Shown in pieces: positions 11,661-56,811 of a stretch of DNA of 56,811 nt (positions are counted from its first letter, which is position 1; the number at the start of each line of letters is the position of its first letter). The notes beneath the pieces were generated by a model. The model saw only the letters and a program-made list of their open reading frames with translations, made no database searches and had not been told where the DNA came from. Made by a program: the position numbers and the translations under genes. The stretch comes from a virus (Duplodnaviria; Heunggongvirae; Uroviricota; Caudoviricetes), in the IMG/VR virus record IMGVR_UViG_2698536317_000003, one strand, 5' to 3'.

Positions 11661-12365
11661 TCAGCCAACCTTACTTGATCCGGGGAAACATGAAATTGGT
11701 AACGAATTAGGGCGCGGGAAACGCAAACGGCAACCGCTGAGGCGGTGACTGCATTTATCTAACGTTGGATCGCTGGTCGGCGCGTCTTTATCAGTCGCTA
11801 CCGGACCGCCACTATATCCGCAACCGTCTCCGCGATATTGCCACTGGCAAACGTCAGCAAGGATGGTGCGCCCAGGGATAACAGCCTTATCTGCGTCTAC
11901 TGGCGTGGATAGTTCGTACTGTACTTGCTCCGCCGTTTCTTCACTCATTGCCTCGACAACGTAAACAGATACCGCCTCAATAGAAGGATCAGCATCTGGA
12001 TTGCCGTTAGGGAAGTTAACGGCGTCCAGGTATTTCACCTCCACCTGGTGGCGGGTTACTTTCATGCCGCGCAGGTCGTTAAAGTCGTTGTTCATTCCGG
12101 TAATAAGCCCGCCAATATTGGCTACTGCCATTTGAGGCCGCGCGTATACCCCCTCGTTTTTCATTTCGAAGCCGCTAACTTCGATCGGGTAGCTGTTGTA
12201 AGCGATACCCTTCCAGATAACATTCCCGTAATAGCCATTAGCGCCGGAATGGAAGCGGACAACATCGCCACCCAGGGGCGTGAGATCTAACTCAAACAAA
12301 TCAATGACCGCGCCGACTCCGGCATCAACGGAATCAATAATCATCTCTCTCGGAATATTGCGCAT
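11661..12365 (-). CDS. L: Minor tail protein L
   Basis: 234-aa ORF with C-terminal Cys cluster; position upstream of K. Confidence 0.8.
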   Translation of the reverse strand: MRNIPREMIIDSVDAGVGAVIDLFELDLTPLGGDVVRFHSGANGYYGNVIWKGIAYNSYPIEVSGFEMKNEGVYARPQMAVANIGGLITGMNNDFNDLRGMKVTRHQVEVKYLDAVNFPNGNPDADPSIEAVSVYVVEAMSEETAEQVQYELSTPVDADKAVIPGRTILADVCQWQYRGDGCGYSGGPVATDKDAPTSDPTLDKCSHRLSGCRLRFPRPNSLPISCFPGSSKVG

Positions 12366-12384
12366 TTTCTCACCTTGTCATTTT

Positions 12385-12400
12385 GTGATCTGTGTCACGC
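12385..12400 (+). promoter_or_regulatory. CRP-like palindrome TGTGA-N6-TCACG upstream of the L/M moron
   Basis: tgtgatctgtgtcacg read directly; TATACAAT -10-like hexamer about 35 bp downstream. Confidence 0.4.
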
Positions 12401-12494
12401 TAAATCATACCAAAATGGATTGATCGCGGTTTATACAATATGTATATTTTACTCAAACGGAAGCACAGTTAACAAAATGGCGCGGAGGTGTGAG

Positions 12495-12650
12495 ATGGCT
12501 GATAAGGTGTGGAGGTTGAAGGTATTCCTGTCAGGTGGCAGGGAAATGACTGTAGCTCTGTATAAAGACGAAGGCGAGGCACTGACTGACGCGCTATTAC
12601 TCGCTGAAGACGAACGCGTTTTGGGGTACAGAATCGAACCTGTCAAATGA
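12495..12650 (+). CDS. Small moron protein A (51 aa), paralogous to N-terminus of next ORF
   Basis: GGAGG RBS 6 nt before ATG 12495; motif VFLSGGREM...DEGEAL resembles VWLSGCKEC...SEEAAL in the next ORF. Confidence 0.45.
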   Translation: MADKVWRLKVFLSGGREMTVALYKDEGEALTDALLLAEDERVLGYRIEPVK

Positions 12651-12662
12651 GAGGTTAACGAA

Positions 12663-13010
12663 ATGCAAAAATATAGTCTTGATGTGTGGTTAAGTGGTTG
12701 CAAGGAGTGTTTCGGATTATTTGATAGCGAAGAGGCAGCTTTGGAAGAAGGAAGGATTCTTGAATGTAGTTTAGGCCATCCAGTGAAATATGCCGCTAAT
12801 CCGGTGCAGATAATTGATGAGGTGGAAAACATGAATCCGAAAGATATTAACTTTAACGTCAATGTTGAATTTGCTGATTCTATGGATCAGTCTTGCCCTG
12901 GTGAAATACACGCAAAAGGTTTCCCGGCAGACGATCCGCAAGCAAAACGCGAATACGAAAAAGCTGCGAAAGACTTCTGCATAGATAACCTGGGCGCATT
13001 CTATAAATAA
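12663..13010 (+). CDS. Moron protein B (115 aa), unknown function
   Basis: GAGG RBS; opposite strand to tail operon; followed by co-directional ORFs and a terminator. Confidence 0.55.
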   Translation: MQKYSLDVWLSGCKECFGLFDSEEAALEEGRILECSLGHPVKYAANPVQIIDEVENMNPKDINFNVNVEFADSMDQSCPGEIHAKGFPADDPQAKREYEKAAKDFCIDNLGAFYK

Positions 13011-13019
13011 GGCGGCAAC

Positions 13020-13268
13020 ATGGGGCGGCGCAATCACGGCGATTATGTGTACACGTTGAAACAAGCCGCCCGCCTCGTCGGTTATCATGAGCACGAATTT
13101 ATTGATTTGCTGATTGAGCGCGGGATACTGTACCAGGTCTGTTTAACGCTGTACCCAAAAGCGAAATACCTACAGGAAAAGTCATTCATCATCATGACGG
13201 ATGAAAACCAGGTCAATCATTCATTCGTTACTGATAAAGGTGTCAATTATCTGCGTGATAACTTATAG
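13020..13268 (+). CDS. Moron protein C (82 aa), probable HTH DNA-binding protein
   Basis: Segment YTLKQAARLVGYHEHEFIDLLIERGIL is HTH-like. Confidence 0.45.
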   Translation: MGRRNHGDYVYTLKQAARLVGYHEHEFIDLLIERGILYQVCLTLYPKAKYLQEKSFIIMTDENQVNHSFVTDKGVNYLRDNL

Positions 13269-13278
13269 GTGGCAGATT

Positions 13279-13416
13279 ATGAAAATAGAAGTTTTGGCGC
13301 TAATAATAATGGGCTTGATCGTATTTGGTGTTCACGCTGCTGGTTGGGACTGGGCGGCAATAGCAAACAACATGGCGCACGCTCACCCAATGAGTTTGAT
13401 GCACATTAACTACTGA
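13279..13416 (+). CDS. Moron micro-protein D (45 aa), predicted membrane peptide
   Basis: MKIEVLALIIMGLIVFGVHAAGW hydrophobic helix; ATG 13279. Confidence 0.35.
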   Translation: MKIEVLALIIMGLIVFGVHAAGWDWAAIANNMAHAHPMSLMHINY

Positions 13417-13421
13417 TAAGA

Positions 13422-13450
13422 AAACCCCGCGCGAAGCGGGGTTGTTATTA
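13422..13450 (+). terminator. Rho-independent terminator ending the L/M moron
   Basis: CCCCGC-GCGAA-GCGGGG hairpin followed by TTGTTATTA. Confidence 0.6.
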
Positions 13451-13645
13451 TACGCCATCAACCAAAAATAAAACCTCCTTGCCTTCCCTGGATCTGCATC
13501 CCACATAACCATCACCAACATCATGAAGATACCATGTATCGCCATTGTCAGCCTTTACAGTAAGGTCGTTGATCTCATAGTCTTCAAATAATGTAAATGC
13601 GTCAGTTTTGTCAACTACACAAGTCCCGTACATATTAACCCCCAC
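13448..13645 (-). CDS. Hypothetical small protein (65 aa) downstream of M
   Basis: ORF co-oriented with tail operon; no recognisable motif. Confidence 0.3.
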   Translation of the reverse strand: MGVNMYGTCVVDKTDAFTLFEDYEINDLTVKADNGDTWYLHDVGDGYVGCRSREGKEVLFLVDGV

Positions 13646-13998
13646 TAGCTGACAACTTGCTCAAATGTTGCGTTTAGCGTGTATACAGGCCCGTCTTTTG
13701 TCATACTCCAGCTACGACAAACAAAAAGCCTTTGCACTCCATCCATCGACGGCGTCCAGTAGAAAGCCTCGACAGCGCCGCGCGCCCTCAAAAATGCTTC
13801 AGCCTGGATCGCCACGTTTCCACCATCACCGCATCCCGCGCTACTGCCTTTAAAAACCAGGGTATAGCTATCAAGCAACGTGTTAATCCCTTTCGCCTGG
13901 CGCTGTTCATAACCATCACCAAGTTTAACGACCGACACATTTGGTTCCCTGGTCACGCTGTAGCTTCTTTGCGGCGTCCATTTGAAAACTTCTGGCAT
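13645..13998 (-). CDS. M: Minor tail protein M
   Basis: 117-aa ORF between tape measure and L, size and position as lambda gpM. Confidence 0.75.
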   Translation of the reverse strand: MPEVFKWTPQRSYSVTREPNVSVVKLGDGYEQRQAKGINTLLDSYTLVFKGSSAGCGDGGNVAIQAEAFLRARGAVEAFYWTPSMDGVQRLFVCRSWSMTKDGPVYTLNATFEQVVS

Positions 13999-14023
13999 GA
14001 TTCCCCCTATAAGTTACATATTG

Positions 14024-14055
14024 TATACATCTTTACGCGTTGCTACGCGAAAAAT
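14024..14055. promoter_or_regulatory. Conserved 31-bp element ATACATnTTTACGCGTTGCTACGCGAAAAAT, copy 1 (upstream of M / moron E)
   Basis: Near-identical copy at 26650-26680 upstream of portal; contains inverted repeat CGCGT-AGCA-ACGCG on the minus strand. Confidence 0.4.
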
Positions 14056-14167
14056 GATAAATTCGTCACAAGAATTATACCCAGTTTACGAAATGGCTTC
14101 ACACAGGACGCAACAAGATGTATATAGAAAGCAAGAAGAGAAAGCAGTACCAACAAAGGGGGCCAAT

Positions 14168-14323
14168 ATGGAACGCTATGTAGTGGTAATGCTGAACAAA
14201 GCATTCGAACAGGTGGAAGTTGCGATTGTGAAGGGTTTTGATGATGCATTCAAATACGGTCAATTCATGATGAATGCAAAAGAAGATGAATACCGTGATT
14301 TCTTCCTGAAAGTGGTCAACTGA
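14168..14323 (+). CDS. Moron protein E (51 aa), unknown
   Basis: AAGGGGG RBS before ATG 14168; opposite strand to tail genes. Confidence 0.4.
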   Translation: MERYVVVMLNKAFEQVEVAIVKGFDDAFKYGQFMMNAKEDEYRDFFLKVVN

Positions 14324-14343
14324 TTGATTGCGTGGGGTGAGTT

Positions 14344-14598
14344 ATGAAATTGGTGGCGATTGGCAAAAACCTGAAAGCACAGAAAAACGCACAGGACCGG
14401 ATCATCAAAAAGGGCAAGGCTTTATTAAATGCTTTCCTGAGAAAAGAGGCCACCCCCAAAAAATTACGCGATGGCTACGGTTATAAATTTGATATTAACC
14501 CCGACTGGCGGTTATTCAGCGAAGATTTAAAGGCGTGGTTAATTATCGACCATCTGGAATATAACAGACACTGTGGGGTTAAAGGGGCGCATAAGTAA
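14344..14598 (+). CDS. Moron protein F (84 aa), basic, unknown
   Basis: ORF co-directional with E between M and tape-measure genes. Confidence 0.45.
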   Translation: MKLVAIGKNLKAQKNAQDRIIKKGKALLNAFLRKEATPKKLRDGYGYKFDINPDWRLFSEDLKAWLIIDHLEYNRHCGVKGAHK

Positions 14599-14732
14599 GG
14601 CGGGCATGAAGGGCGATAAATTCACCCGGCGGGGAACTGGAATGTTTGACAGGTAATTTTGGATAGGGTGTATCGCGCGGAATGGTTGTTTATAAATACG
14701 AAAATAGCCCCGGCATTGTACCGGGGTTTGGT

Positions 14733-17700
14733 TTATTTGCGGCGAGGTTGCAACATTCCTCCCGGTCTGGATGATTCGCGGTGTATCAGGCCCATACAGA
14801 TCTTTTCCATATCCTGCTGTAGTTTTTTGGCGTCCTCATCACTCCATCCATTTTGTGGGTAAACACTAATCGGTGCGTTTATACTAACGTTACCGCCGCC
14901 CGCACCACCAATGTCGCGATTTGATATTATCCTGCCGTTGTCACCCGGAATCATGTACTGCTCGCCGTTTCGAGATTGGAAGATCTCTGGCTTGCCGTGC
15001 TCGCCAACCCTATAAAGATTGCCGCCATTAACCGCGCCGCCGTTATAGCGAGCACCCGCCAGGCCAAGCGCTTTTGCCCCAGCTAATCCGGTAGCCATCG
15101 CCGCTGACCCCGCCGTCGCTGCGCCGCCCATTGTTGCCACGCTTGCCAGGTATGCCGGGGTGGACCATGCAGAACTTAACGCCACCGCCTCGCCCATTGC
15201 CTTTGCTGTTGCGGCGGCACTGGCAGCCTCCCCTATTAATTGCTGCTTGACCCATTCAGCGCCCATCTGAACAAGCGTACCGATCACGGATGACAGAATT
15301 GTATTGCCAATGTTAGCAAGCGCCTGTTGCCAACTCTGAGTGCCGTTAACCAGTCCGACAAGCGCGTTTGTTGCGGAACCACTCATTGCATCAACAGTAT
15401 CACCTAACAATTGGTTGCTCATTGACTGCGCTTTATATCGTTCCCATTCAAGGGAAAGCATTTCCTGTGCGTGCGCTTTTTCTTGCTCCCTCATATATTG
15501 CTCGGTAGCGCCTAAATCGGTAAGCATTTGTTTGCGAACAGCCCATTCGTTTTGCGCCTGCTGGATTGGGTCTACCTGCCCGCGCACTTGTAGCTCTTTG
15601 TTTACCAGATTATCCCAGCTAGCCTGACGTTTGCGTTGTTCCTCGGTTCCAATTAATTCTTTCCATGCCTTATTGTATTGTTCCGCGCTTATTTTCCCGC
15701 TTTTAAGTGCGGCGTTTAGCGCCTCCTGATCCTCTTTTAATTTCCGTTGTGCTGCAGCTTCTACGTTGTATTTGTCTGCAACATTCTGGCCCCGCTTCTC
15801 AAGCTCTTTGCGCAGGCGTTCAGCCTCTTTTAGACGTTTTTTCTCCTCGCTTTCGCCAGTTTTTTTCCCATGACTGGCCTTTCTTTCAGCTTCGGCGCGT
15901 TTCTGCTCGGTGTCGTATGCTTTGGTCATTGTAGCCATGTATTTTTCATACGCTTCCCCGGTCAGGTTTGCTTTCTCAGCCTCACGCTTAAACCCATCAA
16001 TCGCCTTTTCCCTGCTGGCTGTTTTGGAGTCGAGTTTTGCCAGTTCCAGGCGGCGGTTTGCCAGATCCATTAGCTCTTGCTGATCTGCGTTAAGTGCGGC
16101 TGAAGCGTGTTGCGTTGCTGCTGCTGCGCGTTCTGCTTCTGTGGTGATTCTTCCGTATGCGTCTGCCACCAACCCTAATGAAGTGGCAAGGGTCTTCATT
16201 AGCGGATCTGTATCCTGCATAAGCAAAATATATTTGCGCTGCATTTGATTAAGGCGGTCGAGAATATCCTCACGCTGCGCCTCTTCCCTGGTCAGGCGGG
16301 CTGTGATTTCCTGATTAGCTTTCGATAGGTTGGCGTAAGCGCGTGACCCCTCCTCTGCTTTCTCCAGTGCCTGTTTATTCAGCTCTAGCGCCTGCGTGTC
16401 CTGGTCAATCTGTTTGTTGAGACTGGCAACGTCTTCCTCTAACTGACCCATTGATATTTGTAGTTTATCTGCGCCAGCCAGTTTAGCCGCCTTGCTCATT
16501 CGCTCCAGTGATTCGGTACTAACATCCACTGAATCAGCAAGGTTGCGGTTTGCCTCTGCCGTTTGATCTACGTGATCTACATATGCTGTCAACCCGTAAA
16601 CAGCAAGCATTAACGCGCCAGGGATACCACCAATCGCGCCCAGAGTAGCGCTAAATGCTGTTTTTAGTAGTCCCGCATTAGTCGCCGCCGCAGTGTGGGC
16701 CGCAGCAAGGCGCTGCTCTGCCGCAGTAAGGGCGTTTGATGCCGCCGTGTTCTGTGCTTTGGCTACAGCCAATTCTTTCAGCGTCTGAACTTCGAATTTT
16801 GTTCCGGCGTTTGCCGCAGCATAAGCCTGCGCCTCTCTCAGCCTTGCCGCCGCCGCCGCTGCTGATTGCCGTGCTGATACCACCTGAGCGTTAGCTAGCG
16901 CCAATTCACTCTGAGCGGCCTGCCGTGCCGCTGCCGTTTGTGCCCTGGTTGCCTGAGCGTTAGTTAATGCCTCTGCTGTTGCAGCTACGAATTTATTTAC
17001 CACTCTGCCACCCATCACAGTGGCAAGGCCAATAAATGCAGTAGCTATTTCGTTAAGGTTTTCTGACAGGGTTACAACTGCCGAATTAAAAGCACCAATC
17101 CCGCCCATAATTGACGAATTGCTGCCGAAAAATTTAGCTGCGTTGTTGCCTGCAACAGTGAAAGCCTCCTGCATAGTTGGGGTGAGTTTAGAAAACTCAG
17201 CATCAACCTCCGCTTTCATTTCCTTAAGGGCTTTAATGATAGCTTCACGGGTGATCTTCCCTTCTGCTGCCATCTTGCGCATTTCTGCCGACGATACGCC
17301 CAATGATTTAGCCAAACCCTCTGACAGCCTGGTAGCGTTTTCTGTAACGGAGTTAAATTCATCGCCATTCAAAACACCTTTGGCGAGGGATTGACCCAAC
17401 TGACGGATCCCGCCTTCTGCTTCAGCGGCAGAAGCGCCAGAAATGCGGAATGTTTTGTTAATGGTTTCAACCATATCACCAAGTGCTTGCGTCGATAAAC
17501 CAGCGTCGCGCGTCGAGCGCTCTAATTTACCGTAAAGATCTGCCGTAGCATCAAGATCGCTTCGTGAATTTTGCGCGATCTGAAATACACGCTGATTAAC
17601 GTCTGCCAGTGATTCACCAGCACGAACGCTATTGATTAGCCTGTTATTCACCTCCTGCCAGGCGTTTGCATACTCAATGATTTTTTTTGCTGCCATTGCA

Positions 17701-17888
17701 GCACCCAGGGCACTGGCAATCGAGGATAGCTTTGACAGTGACTTACTTGCCTGAGTGGCGGCACTATCCACGCGCTCCAAATCCTTTTCCATTTTGCCAG
17801 TTGCGCGATCTACCTCGCGCTGAACAGTCAGAAGCTGACCCGTTTTTGCATCAACCTCGTAATAAATTGTGCCTAAATTTGTTGACAT
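14733..17888 (-). CDS. H: Tail tape measure protein
   Basis: 1051-aa Ala/Gln-rich coiled-coil ORF upstream of M-L-K-I-J. Confidence 0.9.
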   Translation of the reverse strand: MSTNLGTIYYEVDAKTGQLLTVQREVDRATGKMEKDLERVDSAATQASKSLSKLSSIASALGAAMAAKKIIEYANAWQEVNNRLINSVRAGESLADVNQRVFQIAQNSRSDLDATADLYGKLERSTRDAGLSTQALGDMVETINKTFRISGASAAEAEGGIRQLGQSLAKGVLNGDEFNSVTENATRLSEGLAKSLGVSSAEMRKMAAEGKITREAIIKALKEMKAEVDAEFSKLTPTMQEAFTVAGNNAAKFFGSNSSIMGGIGAFNSAVVTLSENLNEIATAFIGLATVMGGRVVNKFVAATAEALTNAQATRAQTAAARQAAQSELALANAQVVSARQSAAAAAARLREAQAYAAANAGTKFEVQTLKELAVAKAQNTAASNALTAAEQRLAAAHTAAATNAGLLKTAFSATLGAIGGIPGALMLAVYGLTAYVDHVDQTAEANRNLADSVDVSTESLERMSKAAKLAGADKLQISMGQLEEDVASLNKQIDQDTQALELNKQALEKAEEGSRAYANLSKANQEITARLTREEAQREDILDRLNQMQRKYILLMQDTDPLMKTLATSLGLVADAYGRITTEAERAAAATQHASAALNADQQELMDLANRRLELAKLDSKTASREKAIDGFKREAEKANLTGEAYEKYMATMTKAYDTEQKRAEAERKASHGKKTGESEEKKRLKEAERLRKELEKRGQNVADKYNVEAAAQRKLKEDQEALNAALKSGKISAEQYNKAWKELIGTEEQRKRQASWDNLVNKELQVRGQVDPIQQAQNEWAVRKQMLTDLGATEQYMREQEKAHAQEMLSLEWERYKAQSMSNQLLGDTVDAMSGSATNALVGLVNGTQSWQQALANIGNTILSSVIGTLVQMGAEWVKQQLIGEAASAAATAKAMGEAVALSSAWSTPAYLASVATMGGAATAGSAAMATGLAGAKALGLAGARYNGGAVNGGNLYRVGEHGKPEIFQSRNGEQYMIPGDNGRIISNRDIGGAGGGNVSINAPISVYPQNGWSDEDAKKLQQDMEKICMGLIHRESSRPGGMLQPRRK

Positions 17889-18147
17889 GATTTAACCTCA
17901 TACAAAATATGATCTATGCCTCTATTTTATACAAAATGGATTTACCTCAGTGAACACATTTTGTATAAAGAAGCCAAAGGAAAGGGATAGAGCGAAGGGA
18001 CTTAAAAGGCCGGATTGACCGGAGGAAGCAAAAGAGGATAAGAAAATGAAAAACGTAAACTACCACCCCAACGAACATGAGCGCTATGCTGACTTTATCG
18101 AGCAAATGTTAAAAGCGCTGAAAAACAAAAACTAAGCGGGGTGAAAT

Positions 18148-18507
18148 ATGAAAAGTCTGGCAAAAATCTTAATCGTGGCGGTACTTGCAGGAGTTGCGCT
18201 TAATGCTAATGCTGAGCACTCTCCGTCCGCAAAATACATACTTCGTGAATGTGCGCATAATGCTCAGTTGTACGATATAAAGCATGGTGACGGTAATGGT
18301 GATCTGGAAATGCCATTTAACGTTGGCTGTATTCATTACGCAATGAAGCCAGTATTAGAAAAAACCGCTGAATGGAAAGATCTTAATAGCAAGTACAATG
18401 AATTAAAAGAGGCGGCAAAAAACAATAAAGCGTCACTAAATGCGTTTAAGGATGGCGAGTCTTATGGTGTAAACGTGGCCCACAGAGTTGATGCGTATTT
18501 CAACTAA
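18148..18507 (+). CDS. Secreted (signal-peptide) moron protein, 119 aa
   Basis: MKSLAKILIVAVLAGVALNANA signal peptide; opposite strand to tail operon; own terminator. Confidence 0.55.
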   Translation: MKSLAKILIVAVLAGVALNANAEHSPSAKYILRECAHNAQLYDIKHGDGNGDLEMPFNVGCIHYAMKPVLEKTAEWKDLNSKYNELKEAAKNNKASLNAFKDGESYGVNVAHRVDAYFN

Positions 18508-18522
18508 CACAGAATTTTAGAG

Positions 18523-18548
18523 GCCCGGCTAATCCCGGGCTTTTTCTT
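18523..18548 (+). terminator. Rho-independent terminator after secreted-protein moron
   Basis: GCCCGG-CTAATC-CCGGGC hairpin followed by TTTTTCTT. Confidence 0.6.
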
Positions 18549-19218
18549 GCTCGCTATTTTCCATTCTTTTTAGTATCTCCATAGCCTCCCTCATTCCATC
18601 GTCATAAGCCTTTTTATCCAGTAATACATCTGGTCGTTTTTGTTTGTTTCTTGCTTCTGGTGGCGTTTTAGCACGCACAGCGGCCCTATATCCGGTCATT
18701 GTCATATTCCACGCTTCTGATTCTGATAACCCCAGGTGAGCAACGGCAGAATAAACAAACTCCAGTATGTCGAACGTTGGTTTGTATTCACCTTCCTGTC
18801 TATCGCTTGCGACCTCTTCAGGGCCATCACCAATTAAGCCGTGGTACATGCAGTGTTGCGCCAGCGTAATAACATCATCAACCGGCATTATTCCCGGTTT
18901 TAATCTCAATTTACCCGAAGGAGTGAACCAGCATTCGCCTAACAACGGGCCTGTTTCGTCGTCTGAGCAACATTTCAGGATGTGTATAGACGTTTGCACT
19001 ATCTCACCATAACACCGCGCCATAATGCGATTGCGGAGGTCTGGATCTGTAGGTAATCGTGAAGGGTATTCGCTACCGTGGATGGTTGCGAAACATTCCA
19101 CAAGCTCCCTGTCATTGCCGATTTTAGCCATCGCAGCAAAGCAAGGATTAAACTTATAGCGCTTACCGTTCACCACAGCCGCAAATTGTCCTGTACGAAC
19201 ATGGATCATAGTATTCAC
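18529..19218 (-). CDS. Putative tail assembly chaperone
   Basis: 229-aa ORF between major tail and tape measure genes; call is positional only. Confidence 0.35.
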   Translation of the reverse strand: MNTMIHVRTGQFAAVVNGKRYKFNPCFAAMAKIGNDRELVECFATIHGSEYPSRLPTDPDLRNRIMARCYGEIVQTSIHILKCCSDDETGPLLGECWFTPSGKLRLKPGIMPVDDVITLAQHCMYHGLIGDGPEEVASDRQEGEYKPTFDILEFVYSAVAHLGLSESEAWNMTMTGYRAAVRAKTPPEARNKQKRPDVLLDKKAYDDGMREAMEILKRMENSEQEKARD

Positions 19219-25322: not shown

Positions 25323-26655
25323 CGTCCTCCTCTTCCGTTTCTACTTCACTGGCTGGGCCATCGTATCCGGCAGCCTCGCGGATCTCGTCACCGCTAAATA
25401 TTTCTTCACCAGTAGCCAGACAAGCCTGATTGATTTGTGCCATTTTGTCTGCGGCTTCCAGTAGCTCTGCTTTGGTCATGGCGTTAAGGTCGTCCCATAG
25501 CACTGATACATCTACTGGCATACTGATAAGGCGTAGATCTGCCATCTTGCGGAACAGATCTTCAATCTCGCCACCGATTTCCTCCCTGCGGGTCATGCAG
25601 CGGCTGTTGAAGTAACGCAGGTCTTCGGTTGATGCACGCTCTCCCTGTTGGTTCCCAACCAGGATGCGGGTTGGAATATCAACACCAGCGGCGGCGGTTT
25701 GCAGGTTTACATCATAGGTTGATGACGGGTCAGACACGGCAGTAACCAGCGGGCTTACTGTCGCACCCTGTAACGCCATCATTACGTCATTACCCTTATT
25801 CATTTCAGCCGTAGCCTCATTGAATCTTTCGCGTAACTCTGTAACGTCGCAATCGTATGTTGCAGCCAGGGAACGGAAGTCAATCTCTTTATCGAACGAA
25901 ATAGCAAGCTGACGCGCTGCGTTTTTCAGGAATGATTCACCACTACCGCCTTCCACTTTTTCCAGTGATACGAATGCGTTGTAGGAAGGTTCAAGGAAAG
26001 CGATGACATCATCAGAATAGTCGCCAAAGATGAATATGCGGTCAGGGTGGATCTTTCTGGCAATGGTCTTACTGTTAATGCGTTCTTTGTATTCCCACCA
26101 TGTCGGCAGGCCATAATTTTCACTGTCCGGGTCTTCTTCGAACTCCTTCGGTGTAAGAGCGCCAGCCCACACAGGGGTAAATTTGGCAATACCTACGCCT
26201 TTTGTCACTGGCTGATCCCACGGCTGGTTATCTCTGACATGAATCAACAGACCAGCATAACGACCAATGAGGCGGCGGCGATCACATTCAGCAACAGTGC
26301 GCCAAAATCTGTTGTTAAATTTCTTCTTGATTTCTCTTTCCCACGGTGTTTCCTTTTTCGCTTTCTCGTCTTCAGTTCCCTCAATCATCTTTGGCTTGGT
26401 GCGCCAGCAAGTCGTAACAATCTTTTCTACAGCACCGTGAGCGATGCCGCCGCGTCTGTACAGTTTGTATAGATCGTGGTACGTGATCTCTTCTTTGAAT
26501 CCGTATTCACTCCACGCAGCATCACGTTTGGCATCTATCCCCATAGTGAATGGGTTGGCTGCGGCATAGCGGGCGTAGGCCGCCTGGCGTTGTGACAAGG
26601 CAGCATTAACCGCCAATTCTAAATTGGATGGCATAATGTTTACTCCTGAATACAT
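25264..26655 (-). CDS. Portal protein
   Basis: 463-aa ORF after large terminase, acidic C-terminus; likely true start at internal ATG 26634 after AGGAG. Confidence 0.8.
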   Translation of the reverse strand: MYSGVNIMPSNLELAVNAALSQRQAAYARYAAANPFTMGIDAKRDAAWSEYGFKEEITYHDLYKLYRRGGIAHGAVEKIVTTCWRTKPKMIEGTEDEKAKKETPWEREIKKKFNNRFWRTVAECDRRRLIGRYAGLLIHVRDNQPWDQPVTKGVGIAKFTPVWAGALTPKEFEEDPDSENYGLPTWWEYKERINSKTIARKIHPDRIFIFGDYSDDVIAFLEPSYNAFVSLEKVEGGSGESFLKNAARQLAISFDKEIDFRSLAATYDCDVTELRERFNEATAEMNKGNDVMMALQGATVSPLVTAVSDPSSTYDVNLQTAAAGVDIPTRILVGNQQGERASTEDLRYFNSRCMTRREEIGGEIEDLFRKMADLRLISMPVDVSVLWDDLNAMTKAELLEAADKMAQINQACLATGEEIFSGDEIREAAGYDGPASEVETEEEDDDEGEEDNQANTSSRDNAI

Positions 26656-26680
26656 GTTTACGCGTTGCTACGCGAAAAAT
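26650..26680. promoter_or_regulatory. Conserved 31-bp element, copy 2 (upstream of portal start)
   Basis: tacatgtttacgcgttgctacgcgaaaaat matches 14024-14055 with one mismatch. Confidence 0.4.
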
Positions 26681-26712: not shown

Positions 26713-28197
26713 TTAAAATCCGCGCAGGCGCTTCGGTAACATGAGGCCTATCGCCTGTGGCTGGCTTAGTTCGGTAATACCCCATACCATTGCGTCCATA
26801 CGGTCAGGGGATTTTTTAGCGGTGGCTGGCACATATTCCATCATTTGATTTTCCAGCGTGTACAGGCTGCCAGTGTGGGCCACCCTTCCCTGCGCATATA
26901 GTGCCGATATTGGCTCTGCACGGGCGAATTTACCTTTGCTTGCGTGCACCTTAACAATGCGGCCTTTGAATCCGGCATTGCGTAGCGTGGCCTCTGCCAT
27001 GTCACCGCCCTGGTTGGTTTCGATAACCATCGCGTCAGCTTCATGGATGTCATATGCTTTCATGGATGCTTGCGCCCAGTCGTTAGGCGACATGCGGCCT
27101 GAATAGTCACCATCAACAGAATACTGAGCATTCTTACCGCCACCATATGCGGAACACGCCACGATCCCCGTTTCGTCAGATTCATCAGATGACGTTGTCG
27201 CCGGGTCGATGGCTATTACCGTGCGGATCTTGTCCTGCGTTATCTGCATCCGGTGCGCTGCGGTTATCATCGCTTCAGTCCACAATGCACCCTCTTCGTC
27301 GAATTTACGCGGGCGCTGCATGTACTGGGCCTCAAATGACCGCCTGTGTGCTTTCAGTCCAGCTTCATGGGCGTCATTGTGCTTTTTAGGCCATAGCCAG
27401 CCGTCTGGCAGGTTGTGAGGAATAGGGATAGCGAACTCGTTTTCAGGATACAAATCCCGGTAGTCAACGCTGTTGTCGATCTTCACTGGCAGGTTCAGGT
27501 GATACCATTTCTCCCCGCTTCCACCACGTAGCAGGTAGCCGGACAAATCATCGTAGTGGATGCGCTGCATGATGACGATAACAGGCGTCGTTTGCACTGC
27601 CAGACGTGAAGCAAGCGTGTCGTTATAGTTAGTGTTTACCTGCTTTCTCACCACGTCAGAGTAAGCGTCGGCGGGCTTTAATGGGTCGTCGATGATTAAC
27701 GCGCCGTTAAATCCTGGTTCCATATACCCCGCACGGAACCCAGTAACCTGGCCAAGCGATGAAGTTGCATACACGCCGCCACCGTATTCAGTCCACCACA
27801 TCGATTTTGAGTTTGCATCGTTGCGGATCTTCATGGGCCACATTGCCTGATACTCAGGCGTACAGATCATGTTTCTTACAGTTGAGGAGTTGAGTAGCGC
27901 CAGGTTGTTGGAATAGGAAACGTGAAGGAATCGTGTGCGGGGATTTATTGCGAGGGACCGCGCCATCATATTGATAGTAGCGATCATGGTTTTGCCGTAC
28001 CCTGGGGGGATGTTGATGATGAGTCGGGTTATCTCACCATTGACAACGCGTTGTAGTGCGTCGCGGATAGCTAAATGATGGCCTGAGATTAACATCTTCG
28101 TTCCGTTCGCTTGCTTGTAAAAGTAGCGATTGAAAAACAGGCCATCGTTTTCACATTTGGACTGAATAACTCGTTCTTTGATTGTCAGCATAATCAC
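26713..28197 (-). CDS. Terminase large subunit
   Basis: 494-aa ORF with Walker A PPGYGKT and C-terminal nuclease-like region. Confidence 0.9.
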   Translation of the reverse strand: MIMLTIKERVIQSKCENDGLFFNRYFYKQANGTKMLISGHHLAIRDALQRVVNGEITRLIINIPPGYGKTMIATINMMARSLAINPRTRFLHVSYSNNLALLNSSTVRNMICTPEYQAMWPMKIRNDANSKSMWWTEYGGGVYATSSLGQVTGFRAGYMEPGFNGALIIDDPLKPADAYSDVVRKQVNTNYNDTLASRLAVQTTPVIVIMQRIHYDDLSGYLLRGGSGEKWYHLNLPVKIDNSVDYRDLYPENEFAIPIPHNLPDGWLWPKKHNDAHEAGLKAHRRSFEAQYMQRPRKFDEEGALWTEAMITAAHRMQITQDKIRTVIAIDPATTSSDESDETGIVACSAYGGGKNAQYSVDGDYSGRMSPNDWAQASMKAYDIHEADAMVIETNQGGDMAEATLRNAGFKGRIVKVHASKGKFARAEPISALYAQGRVAHTGSLYTLENQMMEYVPATAKKSPDRMDAMVWGITELSQPQAIGLMLPKRLRGF

Positions 28198-55436: not shown

Positions 55437-55654
55437 TGGATAAGATCGGGACAATACTTATTAACCGTGAGCAAGTGCAAAAAATGTTAGGCGGGCTTAG
55501 CAAGTCCGCCTTTTTTAAGCTCGTTAAAAAATGGAAAGAAGCGGGAACTCCTTTCCCTGAACCTGTAAAGGGGATGCCAGCATTAAAGCGCGGGGGATCT
55601 CTTTACCGTTATCAGGACGTTATTTCATTTTGTAAATCGATGGGCTTCATGTAG
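55436..55654 (+). CDS. Excisionase-like / small DNA-binding protein
   Basis: 72-aa ORF adjacent to and converging on the integrase gene. Confidence 0.45.
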   Translation: MDKIGTILINREQVQKMLGGLSKSAFFKLVKKWKEAGTPFPEPVKGMPALKRGGSLYRYQDVISFCKSMGFM

Positions 55655-56811
55655 TAATCAGCCAGTTTATTCATCGCCTCGATTTGTTCCCTCACGTAAT
55701 CATATTGATCATAGATAGCCATCATCCCCGCCAGTTTATGACCCAAAACCTTTTCGGCTACGTGCGGCGCAACGCCAAGCGCTGAAAGGTTTGTCCTTAC
55801 AGTGCGGCGTAGATCGTGACACGACCACGGCTCGCCGCCCATCCTTAGCATCAAATCCCTTGCGGCTGTTTTCGGCACGCTCCTGTCTACCGCTTCATCC
55901 CTTCCAGAAAGCACGGGAACGAAGATAAAATTAAAGCCGTGCAAATCCATAGCCTCACGCAATAAATCAACGCTAACGGCAGATAAACCGCGTTTAAACT
56001 CATTTCTGTTCTTACTCAATGCACCCGGCACGGTCCACACACAATTATCAAGATCAAAATGCTCGCGTTTTGCGTTTGTTAGCTCGCTTGTTCTGCATCC
56101 GGTGAATATAATCAGCTTCATCAATATCTGATTTAGCCGCGCCATTTTTGAGCTATCTATAATGCTGATCAGATGGTGAATCTCTTGTATTGATAAAACG
56201 CGCTTCCTTTGCGCCGGGTTTTTGCCAACGTCTTTCACGCGTAGCAATGATATGTCGTCACGCTCCACGCGGCGGCGGCGCATGGCATATTTTATAACCG
56301 CCTTCATCCTGTTTAAGACTATCCCGGCCTGAACGGGCGCGCCACCATTAGCTACCTTTCTAAAAATTCCCTCCCACATTATGGCGTCCATATCATCAAC
56401 AATATAGCTACCGCATGGTTTGACAATATGCTTGCTTAACATCGCTTCGACTTGCTTATGGTTGACCATGTTTCTTGCCTGCGGTGATTCCATATATTCC
56501 CTGACAATATCTTCAACGGTCGCCCGTGTCGTAACGCGGGAAAGGTGCATTCTTTTTACGATCGATGGATCTCGCCCTGAGTTTAATATTTCCTTATGTT
56601 CCGCCACCGCCGCGCGGGCTTCTTTGAGCGTTATTTCTCCGTAAGTGCCAATCTTCATCCGTCGCGGCTTGCCGTTGAATCGGTAGCGATACTGGAAAGA
56701 TATAACGCCGTGCGGGCTTATCCTGGCAGACAATCCGCCCGCGTCCGGGACTTCTTCCGGGCCGTCATATGGCTTGCCGTGGATGTTTCGTAATTTGGTA
56801 TCTGTAAGCAT
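55612..56811 (-). CDS. Tyrosine integrase, P4-type
   Basis: 399-aa ORF with arm-binding N-terminus (MLTDTKLRN...ISFQYRYRFNGK) and C-terminal catalytic domain; 5-prime end at window edge. Confidence 0.9.
   Translation of the reverse strand: MLTDTKLRNIHGKPYDGPEEVPDAGGLSARISPHGVISFQYRYRFNGKPRRMKIGTYGEITLKEARAAVAEHKEILNSGRDPSIVKRMHLSRVTTRATVEDIVREYMESPQARNMVNHKQVEAMLSKHIVKPCGSYIVDDMDAIMWEGIFRKVANGGAPVQAGIVLNRMKAVIKYAMRRRRVERDDISLLRVKDVGKNPAQRKRVLSIQEIHHLISIIDSSKMARLNQILMKLIIFTGCRTSELTNAKREHFDLDNCVWTVPGALSKNRNEFKRGLSAVSVDLLREAMDLHGFNFIFVPVLSGRDEAVDRSVPKTAARDLMLRMGGEPWSCHDLRRTVRTNLSALGVAPHVAEKVLGHKLAGMMAIYDQYDYVREQIEAMNKLADYYMKPIDLQNEITS

Follow-up and report, generated by a model that had tools for sequence, protein, structure and literature searches.

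The 56,811-nucleotide stretch of DNA analyzed here (IMG/VR record IMGVR_UViG_2698536317_000003, hereafter the window) is an integrated Escherichia coli prophage, with the host gene abgT at 1-1446 and a tyrosine integrase gene at 55612-56811. The structural genes of the prophage are on the minus strand, and two small plus-strand genes, termed here ORF-A and ORF-B (ORF, open reading frame; A and B for short), interrupt its tail operon between the gene for minor tail protein M and the gene for the tape measure protein. An earlier sequence-only reading of this DNA had described ORFs of 51 and 84 amino acids (aa) at this place, opposite to the tail operon, and both were confirmed at exactly these lengths. 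Over positions 13600-14800 the window is nearest, among named phages, to the 'mEpimmI' coliphages mEp013, mEp010, mEp044, mEp021, mEp554 and mEp515 and to MagusPhagus (87-92% identity). The mEpimmI phages are a recently described, non-lambdoid group of Nus-dependent temperate phages (PMC11893012). The features of the locus are as follows.

13645-13998, minus strand: gene for minor tail protein M, the left boundary of the insert (Pfam PF05939 Phage_min_tail, lambda M-type, E value 1.1e-29; the homologue is named 'phage tail protein' by the Prokaryotic Genome Annotation Pipeline, PGAP)
14003-14135 (about 135 bp), no strand assigned: divergent leader that separates the start of M from ORF-A, with near-invariant blocks in an alignment of 42 distinct related sequences
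14024-14054, no strand assigned: copy 1 of a 31-bp element with the core TTACGCGnTnCTACGCGAAAAA
14098-14126, plus strand: candidate sigma-70 promoter for the A-B transcript, TTCACA (14098), 17 nt, TATATA (14121)
14168-14323, plus strand: ORF-A, 51 aa, with Shine-Dalgarno (SD) sequence AAGGGGG and a ratio of non-synonymous to synonymous substitution rates (dN/dS) of 0.056; also called by PGAP as a 51-aa coding sequence
14344-14598, plus strand: ORF-B, 84 aa, with SD sequence GGGGTGAG; Pfam PF24732 ParE_like, predicted RelE/ParE-superfamily fold
14606-14656, plus strand: frameshifted remnant of a third ORF, translated in the window as MKGDKFTRRGTGMFDR followed by a stop; 30 aa in relatives
14706-14728, no strand assigned: bidirectional hairpin resembling an intrinsic terminator, between the ORF-B stop and the tape-measure stop, with an 8-bp stem containing 6 G-C pairs and T-runs on both strands
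14733-17888, minus strand: tape measure protein gene, the right boundary of the insert (1051-aa ORF; homologue named 'tape measure protein' by PGAP)

ORF-A and ORF-B are real genes under strong purifying selection, because their in-frame dN/dS is about 0.06 (the value listed for ORF-A, over 46 loci, and 0.067 for ORF-B, over 48 loci, neither with internal stops) whereas shifted frames of both gave ratios of 1.1-2.3 in the same calculation. The two ORFs are in this way conserved in related prophages, a point on which the sequence-only reading had made itself depend. Homology and fold prediction, which that reading had put forward as a check, placed ORF-B in an existing family with a RelE/ParE-type fold; the homology searches left ORF-A without a known family.

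The product of ORF-B is strongly basic, as had been noted earlier, with an isoelectric point (pI) of 9.95 and a net charge of +9.8. It matches PF24732 ParE_like with 43.3 bits against a gathering cut-off of 24.4 (E value 3.7e-11), residues 19-75 covering profile positions 2-67 of 67, and the same domain is precomputed on all close ORF-B homologues. A further match is to phrog_1525, a group without a known function, and there were no matches in NCBIfam or PADLOC. 'ParE family toxin-like protein' is the existing PGAP name of near-identical E. coli proteins, one of which (WP_053886672.1) is 100% identical to the ORF-B product. None of family, fold assignment and annotation name is thus new with B, and B joins an annotated but experimentally uncharacterized family; no experimental characterization was found in the literature on PF24732 or on mEp021 gp66/67. 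Among 5426 complete E. coli genomes there are 35 with the cassette, chromosomal every time, and no relatives of B were found on plasmids. Additionally, a phmmer search of 1.84 billion representatives returned one new true relative, plus false positives with VCBS repeats.

An AlphaFold2 (AF2) model of B built with a shallow alignment of close homologues was unusable (predicted local distance difference test score, pLDDT, 55), whereas an alignment of 28 diverse family sequences gave a pLDDT of 89.5 and a predicted template modeling (TM) score of 0.78, with the topology b-b-a-b-b-b-a (b, strand; a, helix). This model has the arrangement that defines the RelE/ParE superfamily, namely an N-terminal helical segment on a 3-4-stranded antiparallel sheet and a short C-terminal helix. 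Foldseek placed Staphylococcus aureus YoeB first (probability 0.95-0.96, TM 0.48, 23-25% identity), then YafQ and HP0894, and the RNase-type members HigB, RelE, YafQ and YoeB ranked slightly at the top among the matching superfamily structures. In a library of viral structures, two jumbo phages, fHe-Yen9-04 and RaK2, supplied the best matches with their 'ParE-like toxin domain' proteins (TM 0.71-0.78). Across the 28 diverse PF24732 members R56 and H70 are invariant, N74 is nearly so, and conservation is also high, though not complete, at W55, Y73, P38 and K40; B and its PF24732 relatives have W-R-L and H-x-x-Y-N motifs in common. The catalytic residues of the RNase-type toxins are K52, K54, R61, R81 and Y87 in RelE, E46, R65, H83 and Y84 in YoeB, and H50, H63, D67, H87 and F91 in YafQ, the arginine on the third strand being catalytic in both RelE (R61) and YoeB (R65). 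In a profile alignment (hhalign) that was not significant, R56 of B pairs with YoeB R65, the pattern W-R56-L resembling Y-R61-L of RelE and H-R65-L of YoeB; by sequence pattern in the same kind of non-significant alignments, H70 and Y73 lie near the C-terminal His and Tyr/Phe of YoeB and YafQ. At the remaining catalytic positions there is no conservation. B is accordingly a divergent protein of predicted RelE/ParE fold that leans to the RNase branch, the ribosome-dependent mRNA endonucleases (YoeB, YafQ, RelE, HigB), and PF24732 would be a phage-borne branch of the RelE/ParE toxin superfamily.

Named relatives of B in PF24732 include mEp021_67, 'ParE-like toxin domain' proteins from RaK2 (a Klebsiella phage) and fHe-Yen9-04 (a Yersinia phage), and a 'putative YafQ-like ribonuclease toxin' of Klebsiella phage Muenster. 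Lytic phages with relatives of B are Sortsne, Kc237, phiKp_21, Muenster, RaK2 and fHe-Yen9-04, and a very common E. coli prophage early region carries one between DUF2857 and DUF7446. Relatives in other Enterobacterales were collected by a profile scan of genome contigs with a sub-family alignment. In the 49 genomes so obtained, they lie within tightly packed same-strand arrays with 4-nt overlaps. The upstream neighbors in these arrays represent eight or more unrelated families, of which one is an Rv2179c-like exonuclease and several have no Pfam match, and the downstream neighbors include a Dam methylase and a TraR/DksA zinc finger protein. No canonical antitoxin was found among the neighbors of these Enterobacterales relatives, and no ORF-A homologue was found near distant PF24732 members. 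In 19 of the 49 genomes (L197-L227, at about 2200-2520) the PF24732 relative is preceded, often with a 4-nt overlap, by a family of about 115-139 aa without a Pfam match; this could reflect either a partner specific to the subfamily or just conserved synteny. Separately, two phage contigs of about 140 kb (L048 and L049, 3001-3267) carry 88-aa homologues that are 47-51% identical to B, flanked on the same strand by small genes of 69 aa upstream and 85 aa downstream, with no ORF-A homologue.

The ORF-A product is acidic (pI 4.85). Searches of Pfam, NCBIfam, PADLOC and the PDB with the single sequence, with a profile and member by member gave no matches to it, and its sole family match is phrog_29810, which has no assigned function. 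Longer forms of ORF-A (68 or 113 aa) were rejected, as the upstream extension is not conserved in frame and the window has no start codon there. ORF-A would be a lineage-specific small protein, seen only in the mEpimmI-type relatives retrieved. It lies on the same strand as ORF-B, 20 nt apart, and the charges of the two products are complementary. Among 46 mEpimmI-type IMG/VR contigs that carry B, 44 have ORF-A directly upstream of it; all 44 contigs with ORF-A also have B, and ORF-A without B was not found. In three genomes (E. coli UMNK88 and contigs L010 and L020) B is intact and ORF-A is cleanly absent behind the same conserved leader. UMNK88 is a cultured strain of enterotoxigenic E. coli with a complete genome. 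The B-only copies keep all family-conserved residues, and selection on B continues without ORF-A, because two B-only lineages differ by 7 synonymous and only 2 non-synonymous codons. Additionally, one and the same ORF-A variant accompanies B variants sharing just 63% and 81% identity with the B of the window. ORF-A matches no recognizable antitoxin or DNA-binding family of the toxin-antitoxin (TA) systems of type II (ribbon-helix-helix, helix-turn-helix, Phd/YefM, AbrB, ParD, RelB and others), and intact B is maintained without it, whereas a type II toxin is not expected to persist without its cognate antitoxin. Since B also occurs without ORF-A, a strict toxin-antitoxin pair is improbable, and a classical obligate TA pair is not supported for A and B. 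The suggestion of the sequence-only reading that the two genes form a toxin-antitoxin-like or regulator pair was thus borne out for the toxin fold of B, through PF24732 and the AF2 and Foldseek results, but not for the pairing. Going by sequence and gene content, ORF-A would at most modulate or inhibit B as a lineage-specific protein that B can do without, and would not be a required antitoxin.

The A-B region is a self-contained accessory (moron) cassette inside the tail operon of an mEpimmI-type (mEp021-like) prophage. In terms of the Juhala/Hendrix description of morons, it has a terminator-like hairpin, deviant base composition and variable cargo, and its own promoter is a conserved candidate. 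The GC content of the insert is 41.4%, compared to 50.8% in M and 51.1% in the tape-measure gene. The cargo differs between relatives, ORF-A being deleted in some and extra downstream genes being present in others. The third ORF, a remnant in the window, is intact in relatives as a Trp-rich product of 30 aa, MDDDKFTWREIWNIWQVMFARSYIARNGRL (the same as mEp013_90), and 3' of it relatives hold up to three more plus-strand genes, for example one for a 436-aa hypothetical protein in mEp013 (L001, 5006-6675). The cassette would have been acquired horizontally.

The leader of the cassette is almost invariant across relatives despite synonymous-site saturation in the coding regions. Within it lie, besides the 31-bp element, the minus-strand ribosome-binding site of M, motifs of the TGTATA type and the candidate promoter, from which A and B would probably be co-transcribed. 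This promoter is the best hexamer pair in the leader, with 9 of 12 matches and a weak -10; its -35 is kept in 37 of the 42 distinct relatives and its -10 (TATA[T/C]A) in all 42. A 10-bp inverted repeat in the leader (TATACATCTT/AAGATGTATA) was considered as an operator pair and rejected, as its mismatches in relatives are not compensated and its right arm is different in B-only loci. At the other end the cassette is convergent with the tape-measure gene, with the bidirectional terminator-like hairpin between them (fold of -14 kcal/mol, with a z-score that is not significant). The cassette opposes the tail operon, and late transcription, when antiterminated, would cross it in the antisense direction. 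Its expression is therefore probably confined to times when the late genes are silent, either in the lysogen or early in infection.

Two other plus-strand, GC-poor (40-44%) inserts also interrupt the minus-strand tail operon. The one at 12375-13443, between L and M, has three ORFs, one of which encodes an 82-aa KilAC/ANT-like protein, and ends in a bidirectional terminator at 13423-13443. The one at 17900-18510, upstream of the tape-measure gene, has a 29-aa ORF and a gene for a 119-aa protein with an apparent N-terminal signal peptide (judged by eye). The leaders of both have ACATATTGTATA and TGTATA-type motifs in common with the A-B leader. Directly 3' of M, and just before the bidirectional terminator of the first of these inserts, lies a 65-aa minus-strand ORF (13448-13645, sharing base 13645 with M; phrog_3249, no assigned function), which is probably a small conserved tail-region gene.

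The 31-bp element in the leader had been taken by the sequence-only reading as a conserved element that precedes opposite-strand morons. It occurs twice in the window, compared to 0.00 copies expected by chance, and the second copy is as follows.

26649-26679, no strand assigned: copy 2 of the 31-bp element, 29/31 identical to copy 1

The element is therefore real. However, copy 2 is located between the genes for the large terminase (26713-28197, minus strand) and the portal protein (25264 to about 26636, minus strand), just before the likely portal start, and there is no plus-strand ORF behind it. This position rules out the element as a moron leader. The core motif was matched in 80 IMG/VR stretches, 34 of M-type and 47 of portal-type (the two of the window itself counted); copies of both types are in the same orientation, and many contigs give one of each. 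The insert between L and M has only a 12-mer in common with the A-B leader. Read on the minus strand, each copy lies on the 5' side of a late gene, M for copy 1 and portal for copy 2. Copy 1 as minus-strand RNA forms an extended hairpin (-12 kcal/mol, z -3.6), and the fold of copy 2 is weaker. An intrinsic terminator was also ruled out, since the stem has no trailing T-run on either strand. An Rfam search of 12000-19000 gave no match, and two sub-threshold hits elsewhere were due to chance. The 31-bp element is a real, conserved late-region signal and not a moron leader; it could serve as a hairpin for processing or stability, as an activator site or as a linker for recombination.

The interpretation favored in this study, with moderate confidence, is that the moron cassette expresses B as a RelE/ParE-fold inhibitor of growth or translation that targets RNA or the ribosome, with ORF-A as a dispensable modulator at most. 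B would most likely be a small basic protein that uses the family-conserved Arg56, His70, Tyr73 and Asn74, and action on translation or mRNA (RNase-type) seems more probable than action on gyrase (ParE-type). ORF-A may temper B, and because B is also carried without ORF-A, the activity of B would have to be mild or conditional in the lysogen. The role of such an inhibitor could be superinfection exclusion or abortive infection in the lysogen, or host shut-off on infection. It should be noted that several observations weigh against this interpretation. Comparison of B with the PDB, by phmmer and by profile, gave no link to any solved toxin, and hhalign of the B family with YoeB, YafQ, RelE and RK2 ParE was not significant. 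That R56 and H70 correspond to catalytic residues in RelE and YoeB is read only from sequence pattern, and the catalytic Glu46 of YoeB is not conserved in the B family. On the side of expression, a stricter consensus scan found no plus-strand promoter in the leader, and the proposed -10 does not have the conserved final T. Finally, the lack of loci with ORF-A alone is statistically weak, as there are only 2-3 B-only cases to set it against.

A different view of the same genes is a classical type II TA module, in which a labile antitoxin A neutralizes a lethal B and thereby stabilizes the prophage or aborts infection. The layout invites it, with a small acidic gene upstream and a basic toxin-fold gene 20 nt downstream in what is apparently one operon, and so do the co-occurrence of A and B in 44 of 46 related contigs, the failure to find ORF-A without B, and the placement of B in the RelE/ParE superfamily. 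Very small antitoxins without a DNA-binding domain also exist, such as PaaA2 of the prophage PaaA2-ParE2 system, for which PDB 5czf was among the matches obtained; this system (with PaaR2) is from E. coli O157 prophages, and ParDE systems were also among the comparators. However, intact B without ORF-A, behind the same leader and under continued purifying selection, is present in the viable, cultured UMNK88 and in two contigs. ORF-A matches no antitoxin or DNA-binding family, the same ORF-A variant accompanies B variants 63% and 81% identical to that of the window, and the wider B family has no consistent partner and is present in strictly lytic phages. A TA module is therefore considered unlikely. 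Less probable still is that B is a gyrase poison of the ParE type instead of an RNase-type toxin. Its names point in that direction (ParE_like in Pfam, 'ParE family toxin-like protein' in PGAP), as does a C-terminal H-x-x-Y-N that would resemble the H-x-x-x-D/N motif of ParE toxins. On the other hand, the third-strand arginine that is catalytic in RelE and YoeB is invariant in the B family and was paired with YoeB R65, albeit in a non-significant alignment; hhalign against an RK2 ParE sequence gave nothing, and the N-terminus of the B model is a beta-hairpin and a single helix where ParE has a long two-helix hairpin.

The alternative that deserves most attention, although it too is doubtful, is that B is a non-toxic reuse of the RelE/ParE fold, for example an RNA/DNA-binding or regulatory early-region protein, and that ORF-A is an unrelated neighboring moron gene. 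This would fit the tolerated loss of ORF-A, the placement of relatives, partnerless and with 4-nt overlaps, in arrays of ordinary early genes, the moderate structural scores, and the fact that only three residues are invariant or nearly so while several YoeB and YafQ catalytic positions are not kept. It fits less well with an invariant Arg and His at what appear to be RNase-branch catalytic positions, suggestive of a retained active site, with a strong basic charge typical of ribosome- or RNA-binding toxins, and with ORF-A not being found without B. The possibility that A and B are open frames that arose by chance in non-coding spacer DNA, or are artefacts antisense to the tail operon, has almost nothing left to recommend it: the ORFs are short and the consensus scan found no promoter, but the idea is refuted by the in-frame and out-of-frame dN/dS values, and the Pfam and PHROG matches, the strong SD sequences, the confident fold and the fact that the ORFs are conserved in about 46 phages and in 35 E. 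coli genomes that are complete all stand against it. A more speculative proposal, thought unlikely to be right as a whole, is that PF24732 is a phage-specific clade of RelE-like effectors that act without an antitoxin against host translation or rival phages, and that A evolved as a dedicated, dispensable inhibitor in the mEpimmI lineage. This would explain the presence of PF24732 in lytic and jumbo phages. If true, A would permit constitutive carriage in lysogens, and the locus would be a case of an antitoxin born beside a pre-existing solo toxin.

If the inhibitor interpretation holds and B is active, this would provide a function for the PF24732 family, so far annotated by fold resemblance only. 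The family is spread over the 35 E. coli genomes with the cassette form, many prophages of other Enterobacterales, and phages of lytic and jumbo types. With its naturally occurring B-only variants, and with no A-only loci found, the locus is a simple model for studying if a RelE/ParE-fold protein can persist in the absence of an antitoxin and by what route a partner gene arrives. The locus also calls for caution in annotation, as a small acidic gene next to a toxin-fold gene should not in every case be called a TA pair. Separate from this is the 31-bp hairpin element, present in two copies upstream of portal and M, as a conserved late-region signal in the mEpimmI group.

Other PF24732 genes are found in same-strand early arrays or in lytic and jumbo genomes, whereas here the gene is in an opposite-strand cassette of the tail operon, behind a 51-aa gene. 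The YoeB-YefM, DinJ-YafQ, RelBE and HigBA systems of the RNase branch have no significant sequence similarity to B. The N-terminus of B is a beta-hairpin and one helix in the model, while the YoeB, YafQ, RelE and HigB toxins have two helices there, and YoeB Glu46 and YafQ His50, His63 and Arg83 are not kept in B. The gene upstream of B is not a relative of YefM/Phd, RelB/DinJ or HigA, and unlike the toxins of YoeB-YefM-type pairs B is also found without its neighbor. In organization the cassette has a parallel in the morons of tail gene clusters, such as lom and bor of lambda, gp15 of HK97 and the Lpp genes of the mEpimmI group. The Lpp accessory genes lie within the structural gene cluster and encode lipoproteins shown experimentally to cause superinfection exclusion (PMC11893012). 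The A-B cargo is unlike that of these morons in that it includes a toxin-fold protein and not a membrane protein or lipoprotein, and its promoter is a candidate one. In other respects the cassette resembles them, being organized as an independent promoter-gene-terminator unit of deviant GC content and of variable presence and filling, set between conserved tail genes.
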